A stretch of DNA of 64,000 nucleotides from Lophium mytilinum (GCA_010093605.1 MU004189.1:1309834-1373833); one strand, 5' to 3'. Shown: positions 5,867-32,332, counted from the first letter of the stretch. A program made the numbers and translations. The notes: generated by a model from the sequence alone, not told the origin.

Positions 5867-8561
5867 CTACCGGACGGTCCACAGGTTGACGAGATTCCTG
5901 TCGACTGTCGCTAGCAGCTTATTATCTGGCGAAAATGCTAGCACTGGCGAGGCATACATGCTTGTATGCTTAAACTTTTGCAACACCCCGCCTGTTCTAG
6001 TGTCCCATAGTTCTAGTTCGGCTTTAGATCGGTCGTATATAACCAAAAATTTGCTGTTTGGTGAGAATAACGGAACGTAAAGCGTGAAACCATGGAAAGC
6101 ATGTAGAATAACACCTGACCCGGCGTTCCAAAGTCTGATCGCATAACTGTACGCTACGTCAATAGCCGTTGATACCAGCATAGTTCCGTCTGGTGAGTAA
6201 GCCAAAGCAGTGGTATTTTGTGAACTTGTCCATATCACTTTACCGTCGCCACTGTTCCATACTTTGAGGACGTTGCTGCCTTCAGCTGCTGATGCAAGCT
6301 TCCCGCCGCCATGTGGCGACAAGGCCAACGGGCCCTTATGATTGGCTCCGATGTTCCACTTGTACACCCTTTGTTTGGAAGGTATGTCCCAAACCCTGAT
6401 ATAACTATCGCGCGTAACCGTTGCTATCATCTTGTCATCTGGCGAGACGACGTAGTATCTAACCGATCTCCGATGTTTGACCTTCCATTCTGCTGCTTTG
6501 GATCCAAGATATGATACGACGATGAGCGTTGCTCGACCGTCGTGCCTCATTATTCCATCATATTGAAGGACTATTAGTGGCGAGTTGAGTGGTGAGGGCA
6601 GAGTTCCGCGCACGGGCCAGAGAACCTTTTTATACTCTGGTCTGAGGATATTTTTGCCTTTTTGAGCATCTACGTCCCATAACGTAAGCTCATAACCGCT
6701 TGCCGACGCTACTGTCTTGCTATCATCAGAACACCAGCCTACCGCGATCAGCGGGTAATTATATCTTTTGCTTTTCAGCGTCCGCAGGCTGGCTCCGGAG
6801 TAAGGGTCGACAATCCTGACCCACCCATCCCTACATCCTATAGCCAGCAGCTTGCTGTCCGCCGAGAATGCCACGCAACCTACACTGTCGGTACTAACTT
6901 CTAGCGTCCGCAGAAGCTTCCATGGTTCCTCGAAGACTGAGCTGTCTGAAGGACGAAAGCCTACGGTTGTAGTTGGTTGTTGCGTCTGGTTTGTATCTCG
7001 GCCTCCGGATCCAAAGGATGGATACACTGTTGCTGCAATTCCCTCCGATGGAAATGGTGGGTGCAATGTCTGTGCGGAACTGACGGAGCTAGAGGAAGTC
7101 GATTGACTGCCGATATTCCCAGGGGATGAGTAGCCCTGCGCTTCGGGACGGGAGCGGTTCCGTGGACTGTTGTTCTCGCCTTCACGAGGCCTCTTACTCG
7201 TCCACACAGCTCTGTCTGGTTGAGGCATAAAGGTGGTAGAAGGAGATGCTGTAATTCTTGAGTACGTTTGGGGGTCGATAATCCTAGCGCCGGACGTCCC
7301 ACTCCAACTGGCGAATGCCTCTCGAACTGTTGCTTCATCACTTCCCCTCAAGGGCCGTGTGCGCGCTGACAGAGAGACGTCCACGTTGGGTGTAGTGGAC
7401 TGCGTAATTCCTCGAAAGGGGTTGGAGCTGTGCAACTGCATCCAAGGATGGCGAAGCGCTACTGCTGCACTCGTACGGAGATGAGGATTGACTGCCATAA
7501 GGCTGCTGATCAGGGCTGTTCCACTTCCTCCAGTAACAACCTTCAAGTGTTCTTTGGGATATTCCTGAACTCCTTGAACGTAATTTCTGAGCGCGTCTTC
7601 ATCCTGGAATGTGTAATCGCCTGTCAACATCTGAAATGCAATTTCACCTAAAGCCCATAAGTCTGCCGCCTTGTGATCGTAGGAGTCCGTGTATCTGCGG
7701 GCAAAGAATAGTTCTGGCGCCAAATACGATCTCGTGCCTTTGATAGTCGACGGCTCATTTCCATTAGAAGCGCGTTTGCTAACGCCAAAGTCGGCCAGTT
7801 TTACCAACCAAACCCCCGGTGGCTGCGATTCGATAAGAATATTCTATTTCATGTTCGTTAATCAAACTCCTCTGGTGCTCCACGGTTACTTACCGCGGGC
7901 TTGAGGTCCCGGTGTGCAAAATCGTTCTCATGCATCTTTTGCAGCCCTTCGAGTATTTGCCGCGTCAAAAACTGGGCTTCTACTAGCGGTATTTGTCGCA
8001 CCCGCGAGAGGTAGCAGCGTAGATCGCCAAGCGGGTAGTACTCCATAGCAATATAGACCGTGTTTGCATTTTCGTACCATCCGAAAGACTTCACGAAGTA
8101 TGTTTCGTACTGGATCGCATCAGCCAATTCCGCCGTCTCCAAGGGAGCACCTCCAAAACTTACTTTAGGGGCTGAAAACTTTGCCACGGCTTTCAATTCT
8201 CCCAGAAAATCTGCGATCCTGGCTTGCGGAACCTTCCGGATCTTCTTTACCGCGCGAAATGCCCCAGAATTTCTGCCCTCTATGCATTCCTCTAAACATA
8301 CCTCCCCGTATCCTCCTAGGCCAAGGCAACTTGCCTGCTTCCAGTGCTCTTGGAAAGTCGTCCGTCCTCGACTGGCGCTGGACTCGACATAGCTATGAAT
8401 GGTGCGGTCTTCGTGAACAGTCGTTTGGAGATATGAATCGAGCACGAGATCTTCTTGGGCATGATCTAGTATATGGACTCCTGTATTCGCGACCGTATTT
8501 AGTGTCCGTGGGAGTCGCGGTGACGATGGGCGAAGTTGGCCTCACCAGAAGATGCCGCCAT
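5867..8561 (-). CDS. Ser/Thr protein kinase fused to a C-terminal WD40 beta-propeller
   Basis: The kinase motifs are intact: LGLGGYGEV, RAVKKI, HRDLKPANIL, KLADFG, YLAPE. An S/T/P-rich linker precedes ~7 WD40 repeats (VAFSADSKLLA...; LAYSPDGTMLVS...IRLWN; LAFSPDNKLLAT). Inferred introns 8481..8545, 8110..8163 and 7844..7892 give start MAASSGVHILDHAQEDLVLDS at 8561. Confidence 0.9.
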
Positions 8562-8820
8562 ACTCTAACCCCGAACTTGGCTCGTCACACCCTCGACTTC
8601 TTTCTGATGAGGAGTGGGTCAAACCAACTGAGCAGGGCAGGAGGTGTATGTGCTGCGCCGGGTTTGCCTTCGTGCGGGGCTGAGGCTCTGCGTGGGGGCT
8701 GTGTTGAAATCAGGCAGCAATCCAGCCTTGCGAGGTCTATACATTCATCGGCACTAACGTTAAACACTGCCATGAACGCAGAGCCTGGCACTCACTCAGA
8801 ATCAAAATCTCAATCTCTCC

Positions 8821-10465
8821 ATGTCTGGCGCGGAACTCGTTCTCAGCGTAATCGGTGCCGTCGCGGCAGTGGATGTCGCAATCAAGTATATATTTAACAC
8901 CGGGCCCTCTCTACAGCACTGACCGCCAGCCAATAATGAACTTGAAGCTGACAGTTTCTCAACAGATGCGGTTCGAAATTCGTCGCCACGTGTTCCGCCT
9001 TCAAGAATGCGGAGCGCGAAATTCTAGAGCGAGTGCTCCGTATCAACAATAGATGGTACAGAACAAAGTCTCAGCTGGCCTTTCTGAGCCGCGTTTGGTC
9101 CACCCTTGATCGTGAGCACCAGGAGCTACAAAACCAACTACTCGCAAACCTCGTCTCAGCTCTTACCATCGCCGATTCCAAAGCGAGCAGTTTCTTAGCA
9201 GGACACTCGAAGCTAGGCAGAAAAGAGAAACTCAAGTATGTCTTTTTGAAGAAGATTCTAGATAAAACAATCGCCGACCTGGATTTGTGGCAAAACGAGT
9301 TTGACCCGTCCTGGTTTTTGATTCTGAAAATTGGAGGCCAAAACATCGACAAGGAGCTCAATGTTAACATACAAAAGACCCACAATACGATTACCACCGC
9401 TTCAGGCATCCGCGACTCAATCAGGGATAGTCCCCAACAGACTGTGGCTGTACTCTTGCCAAAAGAGGATTTAGATGGAGCTAGGTTCGATGTCCTACCC
9501 TACAGTTCCGCAAAGTTAGCACAGCGAGTAAACTCGACAAGCTGGCTCATTTTGGACCCGATACGAAGCGAGTCTTTACCAGACTTTCAGCAGATGCACA
9601 AGACGGTTCGAGATCTCGCCAGAAGGCTGACCAGGACTGACCCTCTAACATTCTCACTTTTGAAGTGCAGAGGATTAGTGGTGGACAAAGCACAGCTCCA
9701 GTATACCCTAGTCTTCAAAATGCCAGACAACATGGCGAATCCCCGAAGTCTGCGCTCTAGTCTCAACGCGACAGATTTGAAGCATTCTCTCTCCGACCGA
9801 TTTCAGCTCGCGCGACAGTTGGCCCGGGCAGTCTGTTCCATTCACACCTTTGGATTGGTGCACAAGAGCATCAGGCCAGAGAACATTCTCCTCTTCCGCG
9901 ACAACAGCTCGACACTCGGGTCTGCCTTCCTTGTAGGATTTGAGAGCATTCGCCCAGAAGAAGGTTGGACGAGGCTTCGCAGCGATCTTGACTGGGAGAA
10001 GAACCTTTACCGACACCCAAAGCGACAAGGCGTTCAACTTCAGGATCGTTACATCATGCAACATGACATCTACAGTCTCGGGGTCTGTTTGTTAGAAATT
10101 GGCCTATGGACTTCGTTCGTCCAGTACTCCGGTAGTTCTCCAGATCGGACATCTCAAGGTTTCAAGTTCTTCGATAACGTACCAGACTCAGTAAATACTG
10201 CAGATTCGGTGAAGCAACAAATCTTACTCTTAGCGGGAGAAGAGCTTCGAACACGAATGGGAAGCAAATATGCGCGCGTGGTCGAGACTTGTCTCACTTG
10301 TTTAGACGAGGGCAACGAAGACTTTGGGGATGAAACAGAATTTCAAGATGAGGATGGGGTGTTGGTTGCCGTTCGATACATTGAAACAGTGAGCTGCTCT
10401 ATTCCTTAACAAACAACCGCTCATATACCTAGGTCCTCTTACAAATCAGCAACATCTTAGTATGA
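8821..10465 (+). CDS. HeLo/HELL-like N-terminal domain plus pseudokinase (fungal het-s-domain/kinase-like family)
   Basis: Exon 1 encodes the hydrophobic N-terminal helix MSGAELVLSVIGAVAAVDVAIK. Intron ~8886..8964 joins it in frame (KCGSKFVATCSAFKNAEREILERVLRINNRWY) to ORF 9033..10409. The C-terminal kinase-like fold has HKSIRPENILLF, LVGFE, LYRHPKRQG and HDIYSLGVCLLEIGLW. Last intron 10389..10432, stop at 10465. Confidence 0.82.
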
Positions 10466-10515
10466 ATGATCCTGGACTTAGACGTTGCCCAAAACTTGAT
10501 GCCATCAGCAATTGT

Positions 10516-11067
10516 TCAGACATACTCGCCGCCCTTCATCCAGCCAAGCTGTTTCCACATATTCAGTTTATCCCACTCTTTCGTAAAGCTCTTCACTTTC
10601 CCGTCTTCTACCTCGAAAATCGCCGAGGCGGTCCATGAAGCTTTATTCCCCGTGGGCTGGATGCCGTTGTGTTCCTTGCCGCAGTGGCTCCCTTCGGCGG
10701 AATACCTCAAGCAGACCATTCCACCTTTCGCAAATATGATATCGTAGGATTTGATGTGCAGATCGGCAACAGCGGCCATTACGTGGGAATGCGAGTCGGC
10801 GTAGTCGAGAGGTGTGTGGCATCCGGGGAAGGTGGTGGGTGCTGTGAAGGTAGCGTTCTCCGCGACGAGGTGCTGGACGCTGTCACGGCCGGTGTTTTCT
10901 TTGGGGGAGTAGCTGATACGCATGTACTCTTTGACGACGTCGACGTTTTTCTGCAGGGTGTCAGTTTCATCGCCTGGAAATATGGGAGGGGTGTGAACGG
11001 CGATGGTACTTACAGACTCCTCATCGCTCTGAGCGACGGTCAGTTTTGAAGGCGGATATTTAGGCAT
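10516..11067 (-). CDS. SnoaL/NTF2-like ester cyclase family protein
   Basis: 183-aa ORF with ADLHIKSYDIIFAKGGMVCLRYSAEGSHCG...GIQPTGNKASW...FEVEDGKV...WDKLNMWKQLG, a SnoaL-like pattern. Confidence 0.85.
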   Translation of the reverse strand: MPKYPPSKLTVAQSDEESVSTIAVHTPPIFPGDETDTLQKNVDVVKEYMRISYSPKENTGRDSVQHLVAENATFTAPTTFPGCHTPLDYADSHSHVMAAVADLHIKSYDIIFAKGGMVCLRYSAEGSHCGKEHNGIQPTGNKASWTASAIFEVEDGKVKSFTKEWDKLNMWKQLGWMKGGEYV

Positions 11068-12722
11068 CGTGGGTGTTTATTTGATGGGGTATTTGATTAG
11101 GGGCATGTTAAATAGATGTAGTTGTTGGTATAACCACTAAATAGATGGAGTTGAGGTCATCATAACCTCATCTGGCGATCGCAAGGCGACGGCATCATGA
11201 CGTCCTCTCTTAAAATTTCCATCAAAGTAATCATTGAGATGCGAACTATCGGTATCCATAGATTGTCGAACGATAAGTAGAAATTGCCATAGGTGGAGCG
11301 GTGGTGTCGAGTGCGAAGTTGAAGCGTGCTACAGGAAATGCGGCGTGAATCTTCTCTAGAATCACAACCATTGGTCGGAAATTGATCAAATTTCTACATC
11401 ACTCATTGGCTAGATTGGGATTAAAAACAGGAGTCACGTGATACCAGGTATGCCTCCGCCAAATCTACGAATTTCGTTCCACATCCAAGAGCTGAGCATC
11501 CTTCAGGCTATGCTTATATTCTTTGGGCCCTGCGCCTTGTTTGTCTCAATAAAAGGGGAACAGATTCATCGATTGTTCTATCCTGCCCAAGATAAATCGG
11601 ACCTATCTTTGTGCCGTGAACTCCTAAGTTTCTGTAGCCTCAGCGCAGTATAAAACACGGCATACAATCACTCCGAATACCCCTCTGCGGCTCATGAACC
11701 CTCTCTGTTTGTTACCGGCCCCCGGAAGTCCGCGTTTTGGATCATTTCTGATTGCGCGCGCCAGTTTCTTCGCCGCATGCAGGAGGCCCTTCACTCCCAA
11801 ACTGCGAGCAACCGCCACACCAACACTGAACGTGTCATCTGCGTTTCAATTTAACAACGCACCCTCAAGCCTCCATAGGGCTGAATCCCCAGGCTGTGGT
11901 CATCTAAGGCACCTCCGCCTTTTGCACGCGCTGCCGCCGCTAAGCATGCACACCAGCGAGGCGCAGCTCGCATTGCGGCGTCCTTTGCCTTTTCTGTGCT
12001 GCGGATCAACATCAAAGCCCCATGACCGCTCTGCATCAGGGTCGCGCTTATGCAGAACTCGGACTGTACGCGCCCGCTTGGACTACAGCTGTATTTCCTG
12101 GGACTCTTGACTGGCCGCCTCGTGCCGGCAGTGTGGTAAGACAGAGCCAGATCCACTACTGCTGATGCGGAGTGACCCTGAATTAGACGCAAAATGCGAG
12201 GAGCCTCATCCATCACAGCCCCCAATACACCACCAGTTCACTGCCATTAGGTAACCAGAGATCGCTGGCGTCAGTATACATATAGGAGTCCCTCCTAATC
12301 TCTCTCACCGCAAACCCTATTACTTCCGCTTTCTATTCGTCAAGTGTCGTTCGTTGCCAGATATCGCCTTCCATTTTTAATAAGCTTGACGATCGTTCCT
12401 GCATCTACTACACTTTCGCCCGTCAGCACTCACCTCTTGTTACACCTAGACGTCACAAGGCAACTAAGAACTCCCTGTATTACAACTTCAATTCTTTGTG
12501 ACTCAAGTCTCCTACGCCTCGCGCAACGTCACCTAGGGTAGGCTTCTACGCCTCTCGAAGTTGTACATATACATACAAAGAATCCACGGAAACACGAAAA
12601 GTAGCCTAAGGACGAGTCAAGTTCTATATAAGCTCGAGCGCAAACCTTTATAGTTTACACCCACACGAATAGCACATTCACATCCCTCATACTTCAATTC
12701 TTACACGTTCTTACTGATTGCC

Positions 12723-14816
12723 ATGCACGACCGCAATCCTCACGGAACAGCAGGCATGGATCTCGCAACTCTCGAAACAAATCCACACGCGCCGTTGAGG
12801 CTTCTCTCCCTCGACGGAGGCGGTGTACGCGGCCTATCTAGCCTGATGGTTCTCGACGATCTCATGGAAAGTATCGCCATAGAAGAGAAGCGACTCGGTC
12901 GGAGACCACAAAACGACAGAACACCCCTCAAGCCCTGCGACTACTTCGATTTGATCGGAGGTACGAGCACCGGCGGCATCATCGCTATCCTCCTTTCCCG
13001 CCTTCGATTGGACACCAAGCAATGTATTGGCATCTACTCAAAACTCGCCGAGCAGATCTTCAAGCATGACCGGTCTATCAAAGTCGCGGGCATGAAACTG
13101 CCAACAGGCTCAACCCGCTTCTCCGGCCTCGTCCTCGAAAAATCCATCAAGTCTGCCCTTGTGGATCTAGGTTACGACGAGAACGAGCTCATGTGGGACG
13201 ACTCGCTCTTCGAAGAAGTGCCCGACAATGACCCCTTGCCGCGTGATAGCATCTGGGCCGACACCCACTCTCCGATTAACATGACCGTCTCCCCCGTCGA
13301 GTCAGCGAGAGCAGACAGTCTCCTCCCAACCGGAGGCGACAGCAAAGCACCCACCAGCAACATCGCAGACGAAATACCAATGCCCAAGCATGCTCTCACC
13401 GAGCCTTTTGGGCCAGGCCTCAGCAAACAAGCACGCACCTCGACCTGGAAGCTTCATCCACGCCAATCCGTGCACCAAAAAGTCGGCAAGAAAGGCTGCC
13501 GCGGCTTCGTCCTAACCTCCCTCAAGAACGCGCTCGGCCTCCCCCGAATCCTCTCCACCTACGACCCCAACGACCGCCAAACCCGCATCTGGGAAGCCCT
13601 GCGCGCCACCTCGGCCGCGCCCACCTTCTTCGAAGAGATGCAATTCGGCACACCCAAAGTAACCTACCTCGACGGCGGCGTCGGCTTCAACAACCCCTGC
13701 GCCGAAGTCGACTACGCCGCCAAAGCGCTGTGGGAAGGCCGCTCCATCGGCACCATCGTGTCCGTCGGCACCGGCCTGCAGTCGATCCCCTCGGTCAAGA
13801 AAATCGCCTCCTGGCTCCCCTTCGGCCTCGGCACCGACATCTCCCTCGCGTCTGCTCTCGCGAATATGGCGACCAGCACCGCGCGTGTTGATAACGAGAT
13901 GAAGCGCATGTACCTCGAGAGCGACACGCGCTACTACCGCTTCGACGTCGACCGTGGGCTCGCGAACATCTCGCTCGAGCAGTGGATGCGCGAGGACGAG
14001 ATGGCGGCGCTGACGGAGCAGTATATGCGCGACGCGAAGCAGCTAAGGCGCGCGCGGCAGCTGGGCGAGCTGATGGCGAAACTGTCGGCGCTGCCGCCGC
14101 GTTTTGAGATCTCGGCGACGCATTTCCGGATCGGCATGGACGGGCGCGGGCTCATCGATCAATCATTTAATCTTGCCCAGGTGGATTTCAAGACCGGGAT
14201 GCCCCTAGGCGTCGCGCCGCATCTAGATGACCTGCCGAAGATGTCGAAGTTCCGCAATTCGAGCCCGAGTGGGGAGAGCGGGTTGGCGATTGATGCGAAT
14301 GGGAGGATGCGGAAGGTGTATCCTGTGGCGTCGGATCTCGATGGGGATGGGAGGAGGCAGGAGGCGGCGGTGTTCCAGTGCGTGCGCGCGGATAATGTCT
14401 GTTTGAGGACGCTGAAGACGGGGATTCCGCAGGGGAAGTATCGTGTTGTGTTTATTGTCTCTTTCCAGAACAGTAAGTATACCGCGCCTGAGAATATCGT
14501 TTTCAGCGTTGGGAAGCCGTTTGATGCGCGGACGTTTACGCAGCGGTTTGTGGATGTCAATATCACGCCTGATGCTGTGGGCGTGCTGCTGCACCCGGAT
14601 GCGGTGAGGGTACGCGTTGGGAAGAAGAGGTATGCGGAGAACAAGGGGAAAGGGTGGTTGGAGATTGAGGGGGATGTGGAGGTCCAGGTGGGACTCGATG
14701 GGGCGTTGGGGTTTGTGGTCAGTAAGAGGTATGAGGAGGATTGCTTCGTGGATGGGTTTACATTCGGGGGAGTAAGGCTGGAACCGGTGTTCGGGGGCCA
14801 GGTTAGTAGGGGGTGA
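12723..14816 (+). CDS. Patatin-like phospholipase (PNPLA/iPLA2-gamma-like) with extra C-terminal beta-sandwich domain
   Basis: Intronless 697-aa ORF with LLSLDGGGVRG, FDLIGGTSTGG (catalytic Ser), ATSAAPTFF, YLDGG (catalytic Asp) and VSVGTG. Confidence 0.93.
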   Translation: MHDRNPHGTAGMDLATLETNPHAPLRLLSLDGGGVRGLSSLMVLDDLMESIAIEEKRLGRRPQNDRTPLKPCDYFDLIGGTSTGGIIAILLSRLRLDTKQCIGIYSKLAEQIFKHDRSIKVAGMKLPTGSTRFSGLVLEKSIKSALVDLGYDENELMWDDSLFEEVPDNDPLPRDSIWADTHSPINMTVSPVESARADSLLPTGGDSKAPTSNIADEIPMPKHALTEPFGPGLSKQARTSTWKLHPRQSVHQKVGKKGCRGFVLTSLKNALGLPRILSTYDPNDRQTRIWEALRATSAAPTFFEEMQFGTPKVTYLDGGVGFNNPCAEVDYAAKALWEGRSIGTIVSVGTGLQSIPSVKKIASWLPFGLGTDISLASALANMATSTARVDNEMKRMYLESDTRYYRFDVDRGLANISLEQWMREDEMAALTEQYMRDAKQLRRARQLGELMAKLSALPPRFEISATHFRIGMDGRGLIDQSFNLAQVDFKTGMPLGVAPHLDDLPKMSKFRNSSPSGESGLAIDANGRMRKVYPVASDLDGDGRRQEAAVFQCVRADNVCLRTLKTGIPQGKYRVVFIVSFQNSKYTAPENIVFSVGKPFDARTFTQRFVDVNITPDAVGVLLHPDAVRVRVGKKRYAENKGKGWLEIEGDVEVQVGLDGALGFVVSKRYEEDCFVDGFTFGGVRLEPVFGGQVSRG

Positions 14817-15222: not shown

Positions 15223-16767
15223 TTACTCCCCATCATCCTCCTTCAACACCCCCCACAAATTATTCAAACTCTCCGCCCAACTCGGATGCGCAAACACCAT
15301 CTCCCTCAACCCCTCCCACCCCACTCCCCCCACCATCGCCATCTGCACCACCGCCATCACCTCGCCCGCCTCGGGCCCCACCGCCGAAAACCCGAGAATC
15401 TTCCCCGTGTTTCCGTCTACTACTGCTTTCAGCATCCCCCGCGTCTCGTCTGTCTCCAGCCCCCGCGCGACCCACGTCCCCGGCATACTCGCCGTCATGA
15501 GCTTCCGCTTCGGCGAGAGTTTCCGTGCTTCGGCGAGGTGCAACCCCACGTGCGCGACCTGCGGGTCTGTGTAGCAGACGTAGGGGATCGTGGCGGCGCG
15601 GGCGGCGGTGGTGTGGAGGGAAGACGGGGCCGGGGTGGTTAGGATGTTGTCGCGGAGGATGCGAAAGTCGTCGTAAGAAACGTGGGTGAAGGCGGGGGGG
15701 CCGTGGACGTCGCCGAGGGCGTAGATGCCCGGGGCGGAGGTTTCGAGGGTTGGGGAGACAGTGATGTGGCCGCGGGGGGTGGTGTTGACGTTTGCGAGGG
15801 GGAGGTTGAGGGAGGCGGTGTTGGGGGTGCGGCCGGTGGCGAGGAGGAGGTGGGAGGCGGAGATTTGGGTGTTGGAGCCGTCTTGGTTGCGGACGGTTAG
15901 GAGGAGGGGGGTGGAGGGGGTAGTGGTGGCGGAGATGGGGGTGGTGGAGAGGTGGATGGTGAGACCGTCTTCGCGGAGGATGGAGAGGATGTTGGATGCG
16001 ATTTCTGGGTCTTCTCGCGGGAGGAGTTGGGAGCTGCGTTGGATGATAGTGACTTTGGAGCCGAAGCGGCGCCAGAGCTGGCCGAATTCGAGGCCGATGT
16101 AGCCGCCGCCTAGGACGATTAGATGTTCGGGAGCTTCTTCGAGCTCTTGGATTGAGGTTGAGTCGAGTACTCGAGTAGGATCAATGCTCTCTAAACCTTC
16201 TAGGTCGGGTCTCGACGGCCGTTCTCCTGTGTTGATAAATATCAAATCCGCGCTCACCTTCTCCTCCCCACCCCCTTCCATCTTGACCACCAGCTCTTTC
16301 GGTCCTACGAAACTTGCTTCACCCATCAAGACCTCCACACCCGCGCCTTGAAGCCTCTTCTCCCCACCTTCTCTAAAGCTCTTTACGATATCTCTTTTTC
16401 GTTCTCTGACTCGCTTGACATCGACCTTAACGTCTGGTTTAGCTTCCCCAAAGTGGACGCCGTACTCCCCAGCTCTTCTCGCCCAGTACGCCACCCGCCC
16501 ACTCGCGACCATAGTCTTCGTAGGAGTGCATCCTTCATTAACGCAACAGCCGCCAACATGTGTGCGCTCAATAAGACACGTGCGGCGACCTGCACCCGCG
16601 AGGGCAGAGGCTAGAGGAGTGCCGGATTGGCCGGATCCGATGACGCATGCGTCGAAGTGTTTGAGAGACATCTTTTTGACGAACTGGAATGTGCGTGAAG
16701 TTTGACGATTGAAATTTAGATTAGATGTTGCTGACTTGGGAACGAGATTAGAGAAACGGCGGATCAT
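15223..16767 (-). CDS. Class I pyridine nucleotide-disulfide oxidoreductase (mercuric-reductase-like/YkgC-RclA-like group)
   Basis: VIGSGQSG FAD motif, redox-active GGCCVNEGCTPTK, LGGGYIGLEF NAD(P) motif, ATGRTPN, YALGD and C-terminal AHPSWAE. Intronless. Confidence 0.9.
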   Translation of the reverse strand: MIRRFSNLVPKSATSNLNFNRQTSRTFQFVKKMSLKHFDACVIGSGQSGTPLASALAGAGRRTCLIERTHVGGCCVNEGCTPTKTMVASGRVAYWARRAGEYGVHFGEAKPDVKVDVKRVRERKRDIVKSFREGGEKRLQGAGVEVLMGEASFVGPKELVVKMEGGGEEKVSADLIFINTGERPSRPDLEGLESIDPTRVLDSTSIQELEEAPEHLIVLGGGYIGLEFGQLWRRFGSKVTIIQRSSQLLPREDPEIASNILSILREDGLTIHLSTTPISATTTPSTPLLLTVRNQDGSNTQISASHLLLATGRTPNTASLNLPLANVNTTPRGHITVSPTLETSAPGIYALGDVHGPPAFTHVSYDDFRILRDNILTTPAPSSLHTTAARAATIPYVCYTDPQVAHVGLHLAEARKLSPKRKLMTASMPGTWVARGLETDETRGMLKAVVDGNTGKILGFSAVGPEAGEVMAVVQMAMVGGVGWEGLREMVFAHPSWAESLNNLWGVLKEDDGE

Positions 16768-20519: not shown

Positions 20520-20838
20520 CGATAACGATGGCGGAGAGATGTGGTTTTAATGGAGAGTTTGTGGTTCGAGAAAGCCCTAGAGCGCTGTGGAAGATGTCGT
20601 ATAAGCATTTGCAAGTACGGGAAGTGCACAGAAAGAGATAGAGCGTCGTAGGGGCATGATGGGTAGTTTGCGGGGAAGAAGTTGGTGAATGGAGAGGATT
20701 GCTATACTTGACCCTAACTCGCTTACGGTATCCCGTACTTAGCTGCGCTTTCACCTAACCTCAACCCAGAACCTTGCTGTTCATCACTTACCTACTCAAT
20801 TTGTTTTCGCGATCAGCAGCCTGATATTCCCATCAAAC

Positions 20839-22675: not shown

Positions 22676-22860
22676 CAGCAACCTGGACACTGGCACCTGT
22701 TCCTCGCCAATCGCAGGCCGTGAACATCGCCTGATTGAAGCGGCATTCCCGTTCCCGCTTCCCTCCGTCGGCTGTGCCCTCCACGCGAGGGGTATCCCTC
22801 ATGATCATTGAGAAGGGCCGCTGCTTACTTGCATGTTCAGGTCATACTCCTGCTTACTCT
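22676..22860 (+). repeat. Diverged direct repeat, copy 1 (partner at 32687..32883)
   Basis: cagcaacctggaca.tggcacctgttcctcgccaatc...gtgaacatcgcctgatt...gcggcattcccgttcccgcttcc...ctgcttactct aligns colinearly with 32687..32883. Confidence 0.9.
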
Positions 22861-23198
22861 ATTTTTTAACACATATGTGCACCTCACCCGACCCACCCTG
22901 ATCACGTGCGCCGACGTCGCTGTGGTTGTGAGGCTTCAATCTATGCAGCTAGCCCAGCCAAATATACTCTCGCCTTCATAATTGTTACCGGGTTCTGAAG
23001 ATACCTTTTCGGCCGTCGCTTCTCAGCCTCGCCTGCGTGCAGATGGGGGCGCTTTCAGCCTTGCCTCTGCAAGTTAAAAGACAGCCTGATGTCCTCCCTG
23101 CTTTATCACTTTGAACTAGCATTCCCCGATTTCCCGGTGTCTGTGCCATACTTGGCCTTCCAGCGTTCCGCTGTGTTGTCAAGACATCCTAGAGAGTC

Positions 23199-26100
23199 AT
23201 GGAGAACAACATCGAGCTTGGAGGCATCCAAGCCAAAATCCAGTCGCAAGGTTCCAGTTTCGACAGCCGCCGTCGTGAAGTGCGAAGACGGCGATTCCAG
23301 TCTAGCGAATACTCAACCCGCAAGAGATCCAACAACGACCACGCTCTTGAGGAAGAGTCAGCCTCACAGCCGCTCTTGCTGATCCTTCGTATTCTAAGCT
23401 ACCACAAGATTCGACTCTTCTCGGTTAACCCAAATCAAAGATGGAATTTACGACAGGCTCTCGGCGATGGAAGCACATTTTCTGTGGACGGGGCAGAGTT
23501 ACCTATCTGGGACGCCTTGGCTCACTTGAGATATCGCAACCTTGACATAAAGGGTCCCAAGGAAAAGTTCAACTTCGTCGATCATACGCGCATAAGCTGG
23601 CAGCACACAACGCTTGTAGCCTATAAAGCCTTGGTCGGTAGGAAAAGCATGGACAGAGGCATGATCATGCAGGATCTCATTACAGAACTCCGGGTTCTTT
23701 GCCATCGCCCGCTTCAGAAGCATCCCAATTTCGTTCGACTGCTCGGAGTAGCTTGGATCAGTGAGATTGACATGGGGTATACGGATGACGCCGAGCCACG
23801 TGAATGGCCAACAGTGGTCGTGGAGAAAGCACCCCACGGTTCGCTTCTTGACTTTTTGAGCTCAGAAGAATTCAAGACAACGCGCTCGTCGTTAATGGCG
23901 AAACTGAATCTCTGCATAGACGTTTTGATCGCAATCGTAGTAAGTGTTTGCAGTCCACTTTAGGAAGTGACGCCTAATATGAATTAGGCCCTACATGCGT
24001 GCGATATCTTGCATGGCGACATCAAATGCGAGAATGCTCTCGTCTTTAACACAGAAAAGGGGACAGCGGAAAACTGGAGAGTGAAATTATCGGACTTCGG
24101 TCATGCTATTCTGAACATGCAGGGCAAAGGTTCCAGTGGCTTCACAAGGCGAGAAGTTATTGGTACGGATTTCTACAGCCCCCCAGAGCTTAGTAGCGCC
24201 GAGGCAGTGATAGATGTTGCGAACATGAAAAGCGTCGATGTATGGTGTTGGGGTCTTTTGATGTGGAGAGTGTTGATCGACGGAATGGAATACAGCGATG
24301 CAGAGGGACATCAAATTGATCCAGGCGCAATGCGAGCGCTCAGAGAGCAGGGCAATATTGCTGCCACAGCAAAAGATGCTTGCAAGAATTACCTCAATCT
24401 ACACCACAGTCGGGAAGGCGCAGCTCTAAGTTCGATCGTTGGGATCCTAGTAGACGCCCTTTCCCATAACGCAGCCGACCGCCCAGATGCTCTCTCACTG
24501 CTCAGCCGTTTGAGAAGGGCCTCATCTGACAGGTGAGTGAGACGCCAGACCAGACTGGAAGGTTGCTCAAACTAATTTCGATTAGGGAAGCTGAGGCGGT
24601 AGAGAATTTAGTGCCGGAAAAGCCCCAGTCGATAGAATCTCTCGAGGCCTTACCTTTCTTTAATGTACGTATACCATTCTCCTAATTATATTACTCCATT
24701 CTAACGTCTAGGAAAGCTCACACAATACTACTACGACCTTTGGATGCTCTTGGCCGTTCCTCGCGACATATTGATCGAGCTGCAATCGTTGCATGCCGTT
24801 GACGCGGATGGTTCCCTAGAAGCCACTTTCCAGCTTGGACTCTGCCATGTTGCCGGCTTTGGAGTGCAACGAGACGGCCAACAGGCAGTGGACTTAGTCA
24901 AGCGCGCCGCGGAAGGAGGTCTTTCCAAAGCGCGATTGGCTCTTCCCCGGATTGCAGGCGCTTTTGGAGTCGCTCTGTCCCCCGAAACTCGTCAGCTTGT
25001 AATCTCTTGGCTAATCGAAGCATCGAGGAACGGCCCTGGGATCGCTTGGATGGAATTGGAGCGACTTGGCTTTGAGCAGCGGATCTTGGGTCCTTCCGAA
25101 CTCCTGCGAACTGCAACAAACATCGCCAAATCCCCACACGATTCTGGATTGCTGCATGCTGTAAAGCTAGGTGATGAAGAAGCCGTCCGGAAATTAAGTA
25201 CACATGGCAGTTTTCCTGGACAATTCGGAGAAACTCCCTTACATTGCGCAACCCTATTGCCCAAAAGCGTTGGTCTTCCAATTGCTGAAATCTTGCTCAA
25301 AGGCGGCGCCAACATATATCAGCCGACATCTCGACAATATCAACTATCGAGAGATGACTTTATCCTTGAAGCGATGCCTGAACACACCACACCGCTGGAA
25401 TGGGCCATCATAAACGACCGTGTTTCCTTCGTGAGACTCTTTCTTGAGTTTAGCGAAAGTTCAGATCTACCATCTGAAGTCTATGGATCGACAACCACAC
25501 CACTTGCATATGCCGCCAGGCATCAAAGTATCAAGTGCCTTAAATACCTCTGCAATGAGCATGGTCGCAGTAATGCTGATATCAACACCTTCGACAAATA
25601 CGGATTCTCGGCCTTTTACTACGCCGTGCGCCCCGATCTATTGGACCGTGTGTTACGCTACGTGCCGGAAGAGAGAGATGGGCCTACAAGATCGGATATC
25701 TCGCCTGTTGTCGCGCGCGAGGAAAGCATTATCAATATGCTTGTAGCTTCTGGCTCGGACATGAAGGTCAGCTCCGCGGGACATTTCAACTGTCTACATC
25801 TCATCACAGCATTCGGCGAGCCATCTACCCTTGAGGCGGTTCTAAATATTAAAGGAAGCGATCTACTCGTCAACCAAGAGTCTCAATACGGTTGGACGCC
25901 TTTGGTGGATGCTATTTTTTGGAGGCGCAAAGATTCATTCAAACTTCTTCTCGAACATCACGCGAGTCCAAAAGACATATGGCCCAAAACCAAGCGACAT
26001 GCAATTCACACATGTTGTCTCCTACCAAACACGTCGTCGGCGCTATTCTTCGCTGAAACATTACTCCATGAGCATCCATCCTGTCTGCATGCCCGAGATA

Positions 26101-27663
26101 CATGGAATCGAACACCCTTGCATTTCGCGGCTATTTTTGGCAAGCTAAAACTGATCGACCTGTACTTGTCTAAGGGTGCGAAGCTGCTTGTATTTGATAT
26201 TCACCGCATTACCCCTCTAGGATTGGCGGTAGAAGCTAGGTCGATGAGAGGTGTCAGAAGACTCCGAGATGAACATGACAGCAGGAACCTACCTCTCCTA
26301 GGATTCAAGACATCTTCTTTGTCGCCCAGGTACTTCTCGGTATTCCATTTCTTACTTCAACCTGGAGGGAAGTCTCCAACGTATGTTCGAAACTCTCGAG
26401 TTCCGTCACCTTATCCCGGTTGCGCCGATCATCCATTCTCAGGACCCTCTCTGAATGTCCTGGACGACCTACTCAGTCATTACAAATATCGGGTCAGTTT
26501 TGGCATCAATTTCATCGAAAGCATTGTACATTCTCCCTACAAGCATGAAAGCGGGATCAGGGAGGCCGTGCAAATGGCGAATTGGGATGCCGTTGACATG
26601 ATCCTGAAATCGGGAAAGTTCACGGTCGATTTACGGCACTTGCTCAAAATCGCGTTCGATCAGCGCATTCTGGGCTCAGGGCATTTTGCGAGCGAAGATG
26701 CGAGGAAAAAGATGGTCAAATACCTTTGGCAAGAACAAGAAGAGGAGTACCAAGCGCTGTATAAAACTCGCCAAACATCACTAATGCGTTTCCTATGGAG
26801 ATATCATTACCGGATGTACGGCACCATGGAACAGGAACAATATCAACGAGTCAATCAATGGCTTTTTGACAACCGCTACCTGTGGCACAAACCCATGTTT
26901 CCAGATCTGGACTTATGGGTCCACACCCGCTTGCCGGTCACGCTGATTCTTTCTATCTTCGTAGGGTGCTTGCTCTGTCCACTCCTAGTCTGCCTTGCCA
27001 TTATAACCGCTGATCCGGCCACGCAATATGGAACTCGCAACAAAGGCCGAACTGGTGTTATGGTGTTTTGCGTAAGTCAAGCGTTGATCCGATGCTGGTT
27101 GCATTCGCTGATTAGTTCCGTAAAGACCAGTACTCTACTTTTCTTTCCGCAAATGCTCCGCGGCTTGACAATCGCTTACTGTGCATCTCAGAAAACGCTA
27201 AAACTCCGCAGCTGGCAGATGCGACTTGTTCAATCTGTTCTTTGCTTGGCCGTACCCGCTCTCGGAGTCTTCAACATCTGGATTTTGAACCCTGAAAATG
27301 CCAACATTGTACGGTTTCATCCGAAATATTCGCTGGCGAAAGGTGTTGCATGGGATGCAAGGGTTTTGCCCCCCTGGAGACAGAACATCCTTGGGCATTT
27401 CTTCCGACTGTGTGATGTTCTACTCGCATGGTCTGTAATTGCTTATGTGTAAGTGTTTCCGTCGACTCCGCCGACTCATCTATTGTTCTCGACGACTGAA
27501 GGAGTACAAGCTGATTATATGCAGAGTCTTCCCAGTGATCATACTAGGCACTTGGTGGATTACCACGTTCAATTTCCGCAAGACTCCACGACTTGACGTG
27601 AGCGAGGTAAGCTTGCAGAAAACGTATGTTACATCGCGGAGGGGGTGGCCGTGGCTGGAATGA
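23199..27663 (+). CDS. Protein kinase + Sel1-like repeat + ankyrin repeats + C-terminal transmembrane region
   Basis: Kinase motifs LGDGSTFSV, VAYK, HPNFVRLLG, HGDIKCENAL, KLSDFG, YSPPE and DVWCWG. Introns 23940..23987, 24533..24585 and 24665..24716 join ORFs 23199, 24009 and 24744 in frame. Sel1-like ATFQLGLCHVAGFGVQRDGQQAVDLVKRAAEGG; ankyrin GETPLH, TPLEWA, GWTPL, RTPLHFAA; hydrophobic C-terminal helices. The 3' exons are uncertain. Confidence 0.85.
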
Positions 27664-27902
27664 GGTTGAACGACAAAGTATCGCAGTCAAACAGGGCCAT
27701 CATAGTTTGAAAAGATCTCCACCAACCCTCTTTCTACATTGATGGGTCGCTGTATAGCTTACAGTAATATACTACTGCGTATCTAGTGCCGCATTCCAAA
27801 ATTTGCTATCAGGAGGAACTTTCCATATTCTGTTCGGATGCATCGAGGCTCTTAGACAGTGTTAAGTACAAATGCAGACGTGTACTGAAGCTCTGTGGTT
27901 TG

Positions 27903-29075
27903 CTAGTTGTTTGACCCAGTGCCTGCGACGAATACTACTAATACCGTTGTGAACCTACACACGACAGTTTGATCGTGGTCAGTTCGGCCATTAAAATCTA
28001 GGAGAGGGAGATTGACATACGTTGCACCGGCTACAAATATCTCTCCTGTTCGTGCTTTAGTGAGCATAGACAACACTATGATAAATATCGTTGACGATAT
28101 TGCAATCACCAGCAGCCGCAATGCGACGCTATCAATCGCATTCACAATTATGACGGGTATGAGGAGAAGCAACACAAGCAGGCTCGCCACCAAAAAGCGC
28201 CCTAACCGAGCAACCAGAGCACTTGAAAAGATGTGCACATTTGGATCGCGCGAGACCTGCAGACGGGGGCTCTGGGACCGAATCAGTACATTCTCCCGCA
28301 CGTACAGCGTTTTCGGATTCTAGTGGGAGCCATACTTTGTTGAACTTCGTTGCAATCCAGATCAAGAAGCCCTCGATTGGACCCTCAAACGCATTTAATG
28401 CTCTATCCGCAGGGCTCGCTAATGTAGCCAGGTCTTCGCCTTTTCCAAGATACGCTGTTTCTTGCCGGGCCAAACACCCAGTGCTGTCGATCCAGTTCTC
28501 TAAGTTTGCAATGTCTCGCCGGTTTGGGCGCTCTAGTCCCAGTACCCGTTCATTGCGGTGGATCAGCTCATCTATCAACACCTCCTCAGCGATGACAGCA
28601 CATAAGAGAGCGAACAAGGAGACCTACCATAATCAGCTAATGCTGCATCGATGTTTTCTAGCACCTGCTTGCGGGCCGGGTTGCTATCGCGCCGGTAACT
28701 TCCAAGGAACAGGACCTTGGGCTCTTCGCGGTCGATTTGCTCGAGCTGTTCCTCAAGCTGGGAGAGCTTGTCTTGCTTGTGGAGGAGCATTCGAGCTCGC
28801 AGCGCGGAAAAGCGGCGACATATCTGGAAGTACGGATGGGAGCTAATGAGTGCTGCGAAACGGGGATAGCCAGATGGGAAGTCTTCGACTGTGTTTCATG
28901 GATTAGAGCTCATCTGGATAATTCGTCTACGTCTCATTGAAAGGGTACCTTGGGTGATCGGCGGTTTGACGGAAGTCTCGTTGCCACGTCGAAATGCTCG
29001 GAGTAAGCGAGTGCACAGTGAAGTAAGGCATCGCGGCATACGCTGAGAGGCTTCTAGTGGGATCAGATCAGCCAT
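27903..29075 (-). CDS. DUF6594-type fungal protein with C-terminal transmembrane helices
   Basis: Spliced translation ...VEDFPSGYPRFAALISSHPYFQICRRFSALRARMLLHKQDKLSQLEEQLEQIDREE...YLGKGEDLATL...LLLIPVIIV...IFIIVLSMLTKARTGEIFVAGAT...VLVVFV, which matches DUF6594 motifs. The start exon (ATG at 29075) is inferred. Confidence 0.82.
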
Positions 29076-30028
29076 TTCAGAAAGATGTAAATGCTACATC
29101 GATCTCTAGAAACCCGGGTATAACTCAGCGCTGCTAAAAAAAAAGGCCCTGCCAGCGGCTCTTCTACTTCAACGTCTTCCCTCGAGGATGTACCTCCCAC
29201 TCTCCGGCCTAAGTAGCTGCATATCTAATTCCCACGATTGGCTAGTTCTCAGATCTGCTGCATGTTCTAGGATGCACTGCCAGCTGGCTGACAAGGATGC
29301 GTGACCACTTACTATCCTGCAACGTAAGCCACAAGGTAGAGCAGCCAAATCCGGCGAACTTACAATTCTGCCTTGGCATCTAGAAAACCAACAGTGAGGC
29401 TACTGCTGCCTGGCGGCATGTGAGGATACCTCATAATACGCCTCCTCACTCCGCTCGATCCCGCATTCCGCTTCAGCCTTCTCACGCTACCATCTGCACA
29501 CCTCATTCTGCGAATACCATGGACGCCCAAAAAGCGTAAGGCTCCTCGCTACATATCGTGAAGCTTACTGAATGCCTTTAGCTCGAGGGCGTACAACCCA
29601 GATTGGGCCGCTGCTAGCTCTACCAATTCTGCTGGTCGTCCGACTATTCAGCGCGGCACGGTAAGTGTCACGATACTCCTCGCACTTGCATGTGTGGTAA
29701 GTAATGGTTGGTAGAGTAGTAGCTACCGACCCGAAGATAGAGTCTGGCTCTCGACAGAAGGCCGTCGAGGGCTTGAGGGCCCCTTTCTTGTAGCAAAGGT
29801 GTCGTCGCCAGGAATCTACATTCTCTGTTTTGAGAACGGAAATCCGGCAAAGGATGGTGCTGAGATTGAGGAGTCTCGATTGTCCTTAGCTCAGTAAAAG
29901 TTCTCGAGACAGAGTCTCGAGATTTCGTGTAGAAAGCACCATTGAATGTGTCGGCCTGCGAAGCTTCTAGAAATAAAATAAGGAGAATTTCAGAACGGGA
30001 AGAAGAGCAGATCGCAGGGTATCTTAAA

Positions 30029-32332
30029 TTATCCCTCTACATCAAAGAACGACGCCCCATCAAGGTCCAGTCCGGCATCGAAACTTTGCAAAACCCTCCC
30101 GTGGAAAGCCCTCCCCAATTCACACTCAATCTTATCGTCCTTCTCAACACCGAAGTCTCCCGTCAGGCAAGTGACCGCCGCATCCTCATACGCCAAGCCC
30201 ATATCATGGCTCAACAACCCTTTCGACTTGTTAAGTATCTCATGTCGCAGCGCCAGAAGTCCTTTCTGCTTCACAAATCTGCCAAACATACTTGGAAGAA
30301 GATCCCAAAGACCGATTTCGAGCAACAGTAGCCCGAAAGAGTAATAGTCGTGTATTTTTGAGTGCCTTTTGGGCGGATAGCGCCCTTGGCGGTCTGGGTG
30401 GCGGTATATGTCGTTGACAACGTCCTTCTCGTATCGCTTCGTGGACGACTCGTCGCTTTCGCGGGTGAAGTCGAAGCCGCACAGGTAGGGCTCCGAGTAG
30501 TCGATGCGATATCTGTTCTTATGTCTGAAGAAGACGATGTTGTAGCTCGCAATACCCTGATGAACCCACCCAACACCGTGCCACTTCAGCAACGCTTGGC
30601 CGATCTTTCGTGCGATGTTGAAGCGCTCACCTAATGTTGGCCGCTGGTGTCGTGATCGAGTGCTACTTGCCCTTTGACTGTGGTTCCAGAGGATGGTTTG
30701 AAGACTGACCGGCACATACTCGTTCCCGACGGGATTAATAAATATTAAGCCATGTCGACCCTGGTCTTCAGCGGAGAAATAACCCAGACACTTCGGAGTG
30801 CGAAAACCATCTGACTGAGGTGCTTGAAGGACGTCAGCAAGGCGTTTCAATCGACCTTGGCTGAGATCATCCAAGTTCTTATCGGAGTCATCGAGGTGCT
30901 TGTATTCTACAAGAACGGTTCCGTGAGTAGGGTGTTGTTCAGTGAACAGTGATACGGTCAAGGGAGTATCTGCCTGCGGGTCTGGTGTATACGACGCTCT
31001 TTCTAACAAGTTATCGGACTCTACCGGAAAGTTGGCCATCAATCGCACTTTGAGTGATTCTACAATCCCGAGAATCCGCATTTCAGGATCACTGATTGCC
31101 TTCGTCAAACAATCCTTTTGATGGAGCTCTGGCAATGCCATCACGTTCCTTTCAATCGTATCTTGCAAAGCTAGGATACTAGTCTCAAAGCTCCGCAAGA
31201 ACCTGTGTACTTTGATCTCGTCTACGGTTGCGCTGTTTTGGTGGTTTCCATAAGAAGAAAATGAGGTCGCCAGCAGCTTCAGAGCGTTTCCTAATCGAAC
31301 GTTGAAGATGTCCCAGGCGCTGCGGATCTCTTTTTTTGAAGGGTTGGGCATCTTTCTTAGTTGGGCCAGTGATTGGACCTGCGGTGGATGCTCCAAAACA
31401 AAATCGCGAAGACACTCAGCTCGAGACACAACATCAGTGACCATAAGTCCTGATATTTCTCTAGGAGCGTAGGTTTTGAGCCAGTAGATGATTTCGTCAA
31501 GAAGTTCCCCGGACAGTGGGCTGCGTACCGTCATTCTAAGCGTCAAAGCTGCCTCTTCGGAATTCAGCCGTGGCGTTTCAGCAGAAATAGAAATGAGAGG
31601 CTCTAAGCGTATTGTCTCTCGTCTACCTCCCAGCGGGAAGTACAGCGGGGTTTGGAGAAGGCAGCGGTCCGCGCGAGCAAGTTGATGATGTATATCAGCT
31701 ATCCGTGCGTGGCCTTTTGCCTTGAGAGAATCTTCTACTTCCTTGATCCAAGCTGTGGTGAAGGAGTCTTGGCCTGGGCTCGCGGCTTGACAGCCCATCG
31801 CACATGACGCCTGAAGCTCGACGTTTGGGGGGACAGTACGGTCACTAGCTCCTCGTGCAGCTTGTGCAGCATAGCAGCAGTCTAGCAGCAGGAGGACGTC
31901 CCCTCTGGCGTGTACTAGCTTTGGCTGTATTTCATACCAGTCCAGCGTTGGCCCATCCTCACTTTGAGCGGCCCAAACCGCACGCCGCCGCCTATCTTTT
32001 GAAGCGAGGAAATCTTGATCGCCATGACCCCCGTAATGGACGATTGCTAGAGACCGTTTCGGGGGAGACTCTAGCCGAGTCAGGAATTGTGCAATCGCTG
32101 CATCTAAGGCAAGGTGGCTATCGCGGGTTGGAATGGCGAATTGATGGACACGGAATTTCAGTAGCTCTTCGAAGAGCTTCTTGAGCCTGAGAGCTTCCGT
32201 CAGGAATCCAGGCTCGTCGCTCTCTTCCCAATAAAGAAGCAGGACTTGAATAGAGTCATAGTCGTTTTTCGGATTCCTGTCAAATTGCTCCTTCAAGCCT
32301 ACATTGATCTTACTCTTCAGTGCGTTGGTCAT
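30029..32332 (-). CDS. Caspase-like (peptidase C14-fold) domain plus C-terminal pseudokinase of the same family as 8821..10465
   Basis: Intronless, with ATG at 32332 in gccgccATG context. N-terminal VLLLYWE, LAIVHYGGHG (His) and DVLLLLDCCYAA (Cys) form a caspase-type dyad. C-terminal VLVEYK, PTLGERF, WVHQGIASYNIVFF, PYLCGFDFTR, IYRHPDRQG and HDYYSFGLLLLEIGLW. Confidence 0.85.
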   Translation of the reverse strand: MTNALKSKINVGLKEQFDRNPKNDYDSIQVLLLYWEESDEPGFLTEALRLKKLFEELLKFRVHQFAIPTRDSHLALDAAIAQFLTRLESPPKRSLAIVHYGGHGDQDFLASKDRRRRAVWAAQSEDGPTLDWYEIQPKLVHARGDVLLLLDCCYAAQAARGASDRTVPPNVELQASCAMGCQAASPGQDSFTTAWIKEVEDSLKAKGHARIADIHHQLARADRCLLQTPLYFPLGGRRETIRLEPLISISAETPRLNSEEAALTLRMTVRSPLSGELLDEIIYWLKTYAPREISGLMVTDVVSRAECLRDFVLEHPPQVQSLAQLRKMPNPSKKEIRSAWDIFNVRLGNALKLLATSFSSYGNHQNSATVDEIKVHRFLRSFETSILALQDTIERNVMALPELHQKDCLTKAISDPEMRILGIVESLKVRLMANFPVESDNLLERASYTPDPQADTPLTVSLFTEQHPTHGTVLVEYKHLDDSDKNLDDLSQGRLKRLADVLQAPQSDGFRTPKCLGYFSAEDQGRHGLIFINPVGNEYVPVSLQTILWNHSQRASSTRSRHQRPTLGERFNIARKIGQALLKWHGVGWVHQGIASYNIVFFRHKNRYRIDYSEPYLCGFDFTRESDESSTKRYEKDVVNDIYRHPDRQGRYPPKRHSKIHDYYSFGLLLLEIGLWDLLPSMFGRFVKQKGLLALRHEILNKSKGLLSHDMGLAYEDAAVTCLTGDFGVEKDDKIECELGRAFHGRVLQSFDAGLDLDGASFFDVEG

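Follow-up and report, generated by a model that had tools for sequence, protein, structure and literature searches.

The window analysed here, a 64,000-nucleotide stretch of Lophium mytilinum DNA (GCA_010093605.1 MU004189.1:1309834-1373833), holds two genes for proteins that end in homologous pseudokinase domains, which we call gene A and gene B, and each of them lies near a gene in which a protein kinase is fused to repeats. The gene A product matches an L. mytilinum hypothetical protein at 100% identity, and the window DNA is fungal; annotation was by Pfam scans of stop-to-stop open reading frames (ORFs) of at least 110 aa. The first pair consists of a kinase-WD40 gene on the minus strand (5867-8561, 859 aa; exons 8561-8546, 8480-7894 and 7843-5867), recognised by its Pfam Pkinase and WD40 matches, its catalytic motifs and one open frame, and of gene A on the plus strand (8821-10465, 506 aa; exons 8821-8885, 8966-10388 and 10433-10465), whose product is predicted to comprise a helical N-terminal bundle, linker helices and a C-terminal pseudokinase. 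The two start codons, at 8561 (-) and 8821 (+), face away from each other across a 259-bp divergent intergenic region (8562-8820), the presumed shared promoter of the pair. The second, putative pair is formed by a kinase-Sel1-ankyrin gene on the plus strand (23199-27663, 1393 aa) and by gene B on the minus strand (30029-32332, 767 aa, single exon), which encodes a caspase-like domain, a conserved middle region and a DUF7580-type pseudokinase. The sequence-only reading of this stretch had proposed that both pairs, together with a patatin-like phospholipase gene between genes A and B, form an immunity island in which kinase-pseudokinase relays stand in for the switch domains of NOD-like receptors (NLRs).

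Relatives of gene A are numerous (1779 matches at E <= 0.001 among 8000 candidates scored) and are conserved over their full length at about 45% identity across Ascomycota. An AlphaFold2 model of the protein (36 relatives; predicted local distance difference test score 75.7) shows four long helices spanning residues 3-32, 39-68, 71-100 and 109-133, two shorter helices after the bundle (138-158 and 167-176) and then a kinase fold. Compared with the PDB by Foldseek, this model matches full-length mouse MLKL best (4BTF, E 5.2e-8, 480 columns), with RIPK1, RIPK2, BRAF and IRAK coming next. The kinase fold has lost its catalytic signatures: gene A reads HKS at the HRD site and GFE at the DFG site, and among 36 relatives the HRD-Asp site is occupied by Asn in 23, Ser in 10, Thr in two and Gly in one, while the DFG-Asp site is Gly in all 36 and the β3 Lys is retained in only three. 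As modelled, gene A has an MLKL-like architecture, with a four-helix bundle, linker helices and a non-catalytic kinase fold. When the family profile is instead compared with PDB sequences, the top match is BRAF (6.2e-9) and MLKL is not among the 60 matches listed. An Atlas feature search with residues 1-180 places the N-terminus nearest to clusters of HeLo (PF14479; score 0.94, 181 shared features), a proximity that we treat as a lead only, and an Atlas structure search with the same region returns plant Rx_N coiled-coil bundles. The public gene A model (P0006, 502 aa) reads through the 44-nt last intron (window 10389-10465); once that intron is spliced out, the C-terminus resembles those of the homologues.

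Gene B carries a different N-terminus on a related receiver. It matches Pfam Peptidase_C14 with 23.8 bits (cut-off 21.4, E 4.2e-5), and conservation among its relatives, 169 of which were found, extends to the Cys pair (73-74 of 75 covered rows) and the catalytic His (34 of 37), so that by profile match and His/Cys dyad the N-terminus qualifies as a Peptidase_C14 domain at the level of sequence; no caspase appears at E <= 0.1 among the PDB sequences searched with the family profile. This N-terminus is common to 104 of the 120 best gene B relatives by BLAST. The pseudokinase portion has HQG in the catalytic loop, with Gly, Ser and similar residues at the HRD-Asp site, Asp there in only 2 of 120 relatives, and Gly at the DFG-Asp site in 120 of 120. 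Searched against PDB sequences, the gene B family profile finds MLKL pseudokinases first (4BTF at 9.1e-9, 6VBZ, 4M68/4M69 and human MLKL), ahead of LIMK1 and IRAK4.

The pseudokinase domains of genes A and B are 30% identical over 252 columns (BLASTP E 8e-22), and their family profiles align to each other with a probability of 100% (E 6.5e-41, 250 columns). Both window proteins align to positions ~121-286 of Pfam DUF7580 (PF24476), gene A with 22.9 and gene B with 23.0 bits, under the gathering cut-off of 27, and many gene B relatives carry the PF24476 annotation in precomputed form. The sequence-only reading had seen this homology by eye from a set of paired motifs, all of which are present in the two translations, and its assignment of both domains to the pseudokinases is borne out by the uniform loss of the DFG Asp in the two families. 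It had also called the N-terminal effectors HeLo-like in gene A and caspase-like in gene B; the latter stands by Pfam, and for the former Pfam gives no match and the Atlas a proximity to HeLo clusters.

An exhaustive search with the gene B pseudokinase domain returned 3923 representative clusters at E <= 0.001. We catalogued what precedes the domain in the best 150 of these 3923 rows, in every one of which it is C-terminal; 113 rows have at least 200 aa ahead of it. The N-terminus of these 113 is caspase-like in 72 (BLAST), HeLo in 16 (seven by BLAST and nine by Pfam at E <= 0.01 among 23 otherwise unlabelled proteins scanned), limited to the conserved middle region in 11 (BLAST) and without a recognised domain in 14 (Pfam). 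Scaffold sisters thus include proteins with a genuine Pfam HeLo domain, for example at E 8e-36, and the catalogue supports the proposal, already made from the window alone, that interchangeable effectors are mounted on one pseudokinase scaffold. Among the 72 caspase-like proteins, P0341 (1091 aa) has ankyrin repeats at 324-396 ahead of a complete gene B-type protein, which may be a real fusion or the product of a model that merges neighbouring genes.

One feature of the activation segment runs through all three subfamilies. The motif G-F-[ED]-x2-R-x5-[ST] ends in a hydroxyl residue that is Thr in 35 and Ser in one of the 36 gene A relatives (T357 in gene A), Ser in 120 of 120 gene B relatives (S630 in gene B) and Ser in six of six HeLo-DUF7580 proteins. 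This invariant Ser/Thr is a candidate phospho-acceptor, whose phosphorylation we infer from its conservation and position.

We next consider the kinase beside gene A. The catalytic motifs of the kinase-WD40 protein are intact (GLGGYGEV, AVKK, HRDLKPAN, DFG and APE). A metagenome scan with the gene A family gave 238 confirmed relatives, the best 80 of which were kept as loci and reduced to 61 at 95% nucleotide identity by retaining the longest locus of each cluster. Searched by tblastn with the window kinase-WD40 protein, 45 of the 80 loci contain a homologous kinase outside the gene A match, at 32-58% identity per segment. Among the dereplicated loci, 14 extend 4 kb or more to either side of the gene A relative, and 11 of these have a kinase within 4 kb; a kinase lies within 2.5 kb in 12 of the 17 with at least 2.5 kb on each flank, and within 1.5 kb in 18 of the 25 with at least 1.5 kb, and it is found no more than 1.5 kb upstream in 21 of the 32 loci with at least 1.5 kb of upstream sequence. 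Of the 11, nine are arranged divergently as in the window, and in the other two the kinase shares the strand of the gene A relative, lying upstream in one and downstream in the other. Kinase-gene density as a function of distance from the gene A relative serves as an internal control, with 31 kinase genes in 165 kb of flank at 0-2 kb, three in 100 kb at 2-4 kb and one in 180 kb at 4-10 kb. In the partner kinases, HRD-D, DFG-D and APE-E are intact in all 28 and the β3 Lys in 20 of 21 covered rows, signatures by which they look active. Independent evidence for adjacency comes from an isolate genome, where the public Monosporascus model P0077 (732 aa) runs a gene A homologue together with a kinase fragment ('HRDLKPA') and WD40 repeats in a single protein.

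Some of these loci hold further genes of note. At L032, where the kinase is lacking, an NB-ARC plus TPR gene of NLR type (L032:5208-7250) lies 2.3 kb downstream of the gene A-type gene, and the neighbours at another kinase-less locus, L010, include an APH-family gene. A second Pkinase ORF is present about 1.2 kb beyond the partner kinase at L004 (6038-6817), and L038 and L042 have a second related kinase 8.6-8.9 kb downstream.

The two genes also diverge together. Across 28 dereplicated pairs, pairwise distances among gene A relatives correlate with those among their partner kinases (Pearson 0.79 by the Mantel test, Spearman 0.65), with none of 5000 permutations reaching as high. The tree of gene A relatives, built by a quick method, shares with the kinase tree the clades {L049, L041, L073}, {L025, L038}, {L015, L019, L047}, {L014, L036} and {L021, L045, L059} and a six-member group around L046, a congruence that shows long-term co-inheritance of gene A relatives and kinases, though not by itself co-evolution through physical contact. 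Gene A and the divergent kinase gene are a conserved two-gene module. Neighbourhood enrichment and joint divergence, by whose absence the sequence-only reading would have been refuted for kinase-pseudokinase pairs at large, are both seen for this pair.

What varies within the module is the sensor end of the kinase. Partner C-termini were examined in the 16 loci whose sequence extends 2.5 kb or more past the kinase, by scanning the longer ORFs (47 of 146 candidates). WD40 repeats are present in six loci (L015, L036, L013, L046, L055 and L066), TPR in one (L044), ankyrin repeats in one (L077) and a KA1 domain in one (L023), and seven have no recognised C-terminal domain, in line with the earlier suggestion of interchangeable sensors. 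The gene A tree places L040, which has WD40 by tblastn, as sister to the ankyrin-bearing L077, so that close relatives have exchanged sensors. Nucleotide-level repeat arrays, with units of 126-129 nt at 72-85% identity, occur in L046, L055, L015 and L044; tandem nucleotide repeats are absent from the WD40 and ankyrin regions of the window and from L077. In the PDB, the kinase of L049 is nearest to Rad53, Chk2, CaMK and ASK1.

The kinase-ankyrin gene (exons 23199-23939, 23988-24532, 24586-24664, 24717-27071, 27126-27448 and 27525-27663) keeps its own set of catalytic motifs, namely VAYK, a non-RD HGD, DFG and PPE, so each pseudokinase gene of the window does lie near an apparently active kinase-repeat gene, as had been noted. 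Its structure is documented by a sequencing run that matches the window and is RNA, as the splicing of its contigs shows; the contigs cover the stretch around this second pair, while gene A and the kinase-WD40 gene lie outside. A 6703-nt RNA contig joins the kinase and ankyrin ORFs through GT..AG introns at 24533-24585 and 24665-24716, and an apparent stop at 27450 is removed by an intron at 27449-27524, giving a frame of 1393 aa that ends at 27663 and has three hydrophobic 19-mers near its C-terminus. The kinase-ankyrin fusion proposed from the DNA alone is therefore real, and the public 429-aa model (P0249) is truncated. The gene B region is likewise covered by RNA contigs; two intergenic stretches show little or no cover. 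Over window 20772-23939, the 6703-nt contig links the DUF7730 gene to the kinase gene, with a 120-nt intron at 22335-22454; the joining of DUF7730 and kinase sequences in one RNA could reflect read-through, a long 5' untranslated region or an assembly merge. A complex prediction for the kinase-ankyrin kinase domain and the gene B pseudokinase, run without controls, scored 0.00 and gives no evidence either way.

Between genes A and B lies the stand-alone patatin-like phospholipase gene (12723-14816, plus strand; Pfam Patatin E 1.4e-22), which the sequence-only reading had correctly recognised. Its catalytic motifs are intact (DGGGVRG, GTSTG and DGG), it belongs to a 198-member Ascomycota Atlas cluster, and its weak structural neighbours include Patatin-TPR and Patatin-NB-ARC proteins and, at template modelling (TM) scores of 0.42-0.47, Patatin-NB-ARC-TPR clusters. 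The same interval contains genes for a SnoaL protein (10516-11076, -), a pyridine-nucleotide disulphide oxidoreductase (15223-16827, -), a DUF7730 protein (20743-21891, +) and a DUF6594 protein (27903-28895, -), the first three identified by Pfam and the last by Pfam on three exon ORFs with a minus-strand intron joint in RNA. An RNA contig marks a further, unannotated gene on the minus strand (about 19164-20487; 278-aa ORF, no Pfam match). Outside the interval, Pfam identifies a fungal transcription factor gene (1832-3904, +) and, beyond gene B, Pil1 and then Sec24 genes. NACHT, NB-ARC and HET domains were not found by Pfam in the window ORFs scanned.

Across the 80 gene A-family loci, tblastn finds no match to the patatin, SnoaL, oxidoreductase, DUF7730 or DUF6594 genes, nor to the ankyrin region, the caspase part of gene B, Pil1 or Sec24; given this non-recurrence, the conserved unit is the two-gene pair, and the proposed immunity island gains no support from the comparison. 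The 445 kb flanking the 61 dereplicated loci contain no further pseudokinase gene, which makes two such genes 20 kb apart unusual, but not demonstrably non-random.

Several other features of the window may be recorded. The unannotated gene at 19164-20487, which has a minus-strand intron at 19617-19671, is represented by an RNA contig of depth 450, compared with about 6-37 for the other genes covered; these contig depths are not expression levels. The stretch 44000-48200 is GC-rich (0.60-0.64) and includes a 591-aa ORF on the plus strand (46370-48145) without a Pfam match. Near the window end, at 61658-63008, ORFs match Peptidase_M6 (immune inhibitor A-like) and Ricin-B lectin.

On balance we favour the view that two separate modules of cell-death type, with one kind of pseudokinase 'receiver' domain as their common basis, lie in the window, and not a single co-inherited island. 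In module 1 (5867-10465), a CAMK-like Ser/Thr kinase with a WD40 propeller, active by its motifs, would act on an MLKL-like, putatively HeLo-type protein: by analogy with RIPK3 and MLKL, the repeat domain would sense a cue, the kinase would dock on the pseudokinase and phosphorylate the invariant Thr/Ser of its activation segment (T357 in gene A), and the helical bundle so released would attack membranes. In module 2 (23199-32332), a probably membrane-anchored kinase-Sel1-ankyrin protein and the caspase-like pseudokinase protein form a putative pair that may act likewise, with S630 as the equivalent site and proteolysis as the output. A wider proposal, which we put forward only tentatively and would sooner doubt than assume, is that such modules are a widespread ascomycete, kinase-based counterpart of NLR immunity, in which a sensor kinase with NLR-type repeats (WD40, TPR or ankyrin) phosphorylates an MLKL-related pseudokinase receiver that gates either a HeLo pore-former or a caspase-like protease, a necroptosis-like system that would have arisen or been kept outside animals as a mobile two-gene cassette.

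A number of observations weigh against the cell-death interpretation. As far as a search with the L049 kinase can tell, the partners resemble CAMK kinases and are no relatives of RIPK, and any likeness to necroptosis is therefore a functional analogy at best; a necroptosis-like phosphorylation switch would be a well-motivated extrapolation from that analogy, with activation and inhibition both conceivable. The kinase is missing from three of the 14 well-flanked loci, and the neighbours at kinase-less loci are mostly unrelated (8 of 10 dereplicated loci, 43 of 67 ORFs scanned). Linked genes that share their descent could produce such a Mantel correlation with no physical interaction involved. 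The TM-scores between gene A and 4BTF are low (0.35/0.41), as expected if the orientation of the domains differs. Pfam HeLo (PF14479) and Helo_like_N (PF17111) give no match at E <= 1 in gene A and three relatives, and hhalign aligns the gene A N-terminus to those of HeLo-DUF7580 proteins with a probability of only 20%; set beside the Atlas results, the evidence on the nature of this N-terminus is mixed. A rival reading takes pair 1 as ordinary signalling, with the pseudokinase as an allosteric partner or scaffold of the kind that STRAD, the pseudokinase partner of LKB1, exemplifies, the N-terminus as a coiled-coil adaptor, and no death or immunity switch at all. Adjacency and co-divergence establish a functional link and not its nature, the missing Pfam HeLo match is in keeping with an adaptor, and the pair consists of transcribed-type, ordinary-looking DNA whose WD40 region is free of nucleotide-level repeats. 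We nevertheless think this reading unlikely: full-length MLKL is the best solved structural match of gene A and HeLo clusters are its nearest in the Atlas, sister proteins bear HeLo (E 8e-36) or caspase-like domains, both death-effector classes, and the partner kinases display the WD40/TPR/ankyrin trio typical of fungal NLR sensors, some of them with 126-nt nucleotide-level repeats.

The second module calls for separate judgement, and here we see the chances as about even that gene B and the kinase-ankyrin gene are mere neighbours, with gene B controlled by self-association, by a distant kinase or by none. The two genes are convergent and 2.4 kb apart with the DUF6594 gene between them, and only four relatives of the kinase-ankyrin kinase were found, in a search among longer proteins that is itself weak evidence, as against 169 for gene B; so small a kinase family beside so large an effector family argues against general pairing, and both points add to those that tell against the cell-death interpretation. 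In favour of a true pair, a ~70%-identical relative seems to carry homologues of both genes on one 18,204-bp contig, although close synteny would lead one to expect this anyway, in P0341 a gene B-type protein follows ankyrin repeats, and the activation-segment Ser, kept in 120 of 120 rows of the gene B family, suggests that a kinase of some sort controls these proteins. We give far less credence to the idea that both modules and the patatin gene are one co-selected immunity island and that kinase-pseudokinase pairs generally replace the NLR switch, where the comparison with a NACHT switch is an analogy. It draws on a patatin gene and two kinase-repeat genes being found together with a homologous pair of pseudokinase genes within 27 kb, on the rarity of two pseudokinase genes within 20 kb (none in the 445 kb flanking 61 loci) and on the weak structural proximity of the patatin to Patatin-NB-ARC-TPR clusters (TM 0.42-0.47). 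Against it, the other window genes do not recur beside gene A relatives in the 80 loci, the interval is shared with SnoaL, oxidoreductase, DUF7730 and DUF6594 genes, and since the rarity rests on zero events, the upper bound on the background still permits roughly 0.1-0.3 such coincidences by chance, by our estimate. On the whole, the sequence-only interpretation has strong support as to the kinase-WD40/gene A pair and the modularity of effectors and sensors, and a true gene B pair or an island would go beyond what is shown.

How MLKL-like proteins are activated outside vertebrates is an open question; to our knowledge, plants and fungi have the executioner architecture without RIPK3. A co-diverging adjacent kinase that looks active and carries ligand-sensor repeats is a concrete candidate activator, and a single invariant Ser/Thr makes the activation question directly testable by mutation. 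The reuse of the receiver pseudokinase on a caspase-like protease further suggests that regulated cell death in fungi draws on a general scaffold whose effectors are gated by kinases.

The MLKL-like architecture is already known in fungi. The text closest to pair 1 in the available part of PMC12881547 is a figure legend, which goes no further than the HELL-pseudokinase architecture; the same part calls for wider exploration of HeLo and four-helix-bundle proteins, states that proteases controlling gasdermins may be joined to 'predicted kinase-like domains', describes fungal clusters (NWD2/HET-S and HELLP) in which a repeat-bearing NLR sensor adjoins a HeLo-type executioner, and cites a plant MLKL family with a HeLo-like bundle, a pseudokinase and an immune role (Mahdi et al. 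2020). In the accessible text of PMC9815663, HeLo/MLKL-like N-termini are treated in NLRs only, and the word 'kinase' does not occur in that of PMC8851545. No mention of DUF7580, and no description of a paired kinase or of fungal MLKL- or RIPK3-like pairs, was found in the literature searched (subscription journals not covered). What seems to be new is the conserved partnership with a sensor kinase, the invariant Ser/Thr common to the subfamilies, and the affinity to MLKL of the pseudokinase that is linked to a caspase-like domain.

Module 1 shares with the vertebrate RIPK3-MLKL system an executioner composed of a predicted four-helix bundle, linker helices and a C-terminal pseudokinase, together with a dedicated, seemingly active kinase partner and a conserved Ser/Thr in the pseudokinase activation segment. 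It differs in that the fungal partner is a CAMK-like kinase with WD40, TPR or ankyrin repeats rather than a RIPK with a RHIM (a motif that was not searched for), and in that the kinase and pseudokinase genes are adjacent and co-inherited, while phosphorylation and killing are here what we infer from the analogy. Plant MLKL proteins resemble gene A in joining a HeLo-like bundle to a pseudokinase outside animals; we know of no linked upstream sensor kinase gene described for them. Gene B, for its part, recalls HET-Q2/HET-Q1 (PMC8851545, as far as its accessible text goes), where regulatory domains are likewise joined to the caspase-like protease of a putative death pathway; unlike that protease, gene B matches Peptidase_C14 and not CHAT, and Pfam recognises no gasdermin-like neighbour in the window ORFs of 110 aa or more, a profile set that fungal gasdermins may escape. 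The unannotated ORFs around gene B match no Pfam family. The closest parallel in organisation is offered by the NWD2/HET-S and HELLP clusters, which, like pair 1, are two-gene clusters of a WD40/TPR/ankyrin sensor and a HeLo-type executioner, the latter putative in pair 1. They differ from pair 1 in that neither NACHT nor NB-ARC is among the Pfam matches of the scanned window ORFs (an amyloid motif was not searched for), and in that the signal here would pass from an active kinase to a pseudokinase, and not by amyloid templating.

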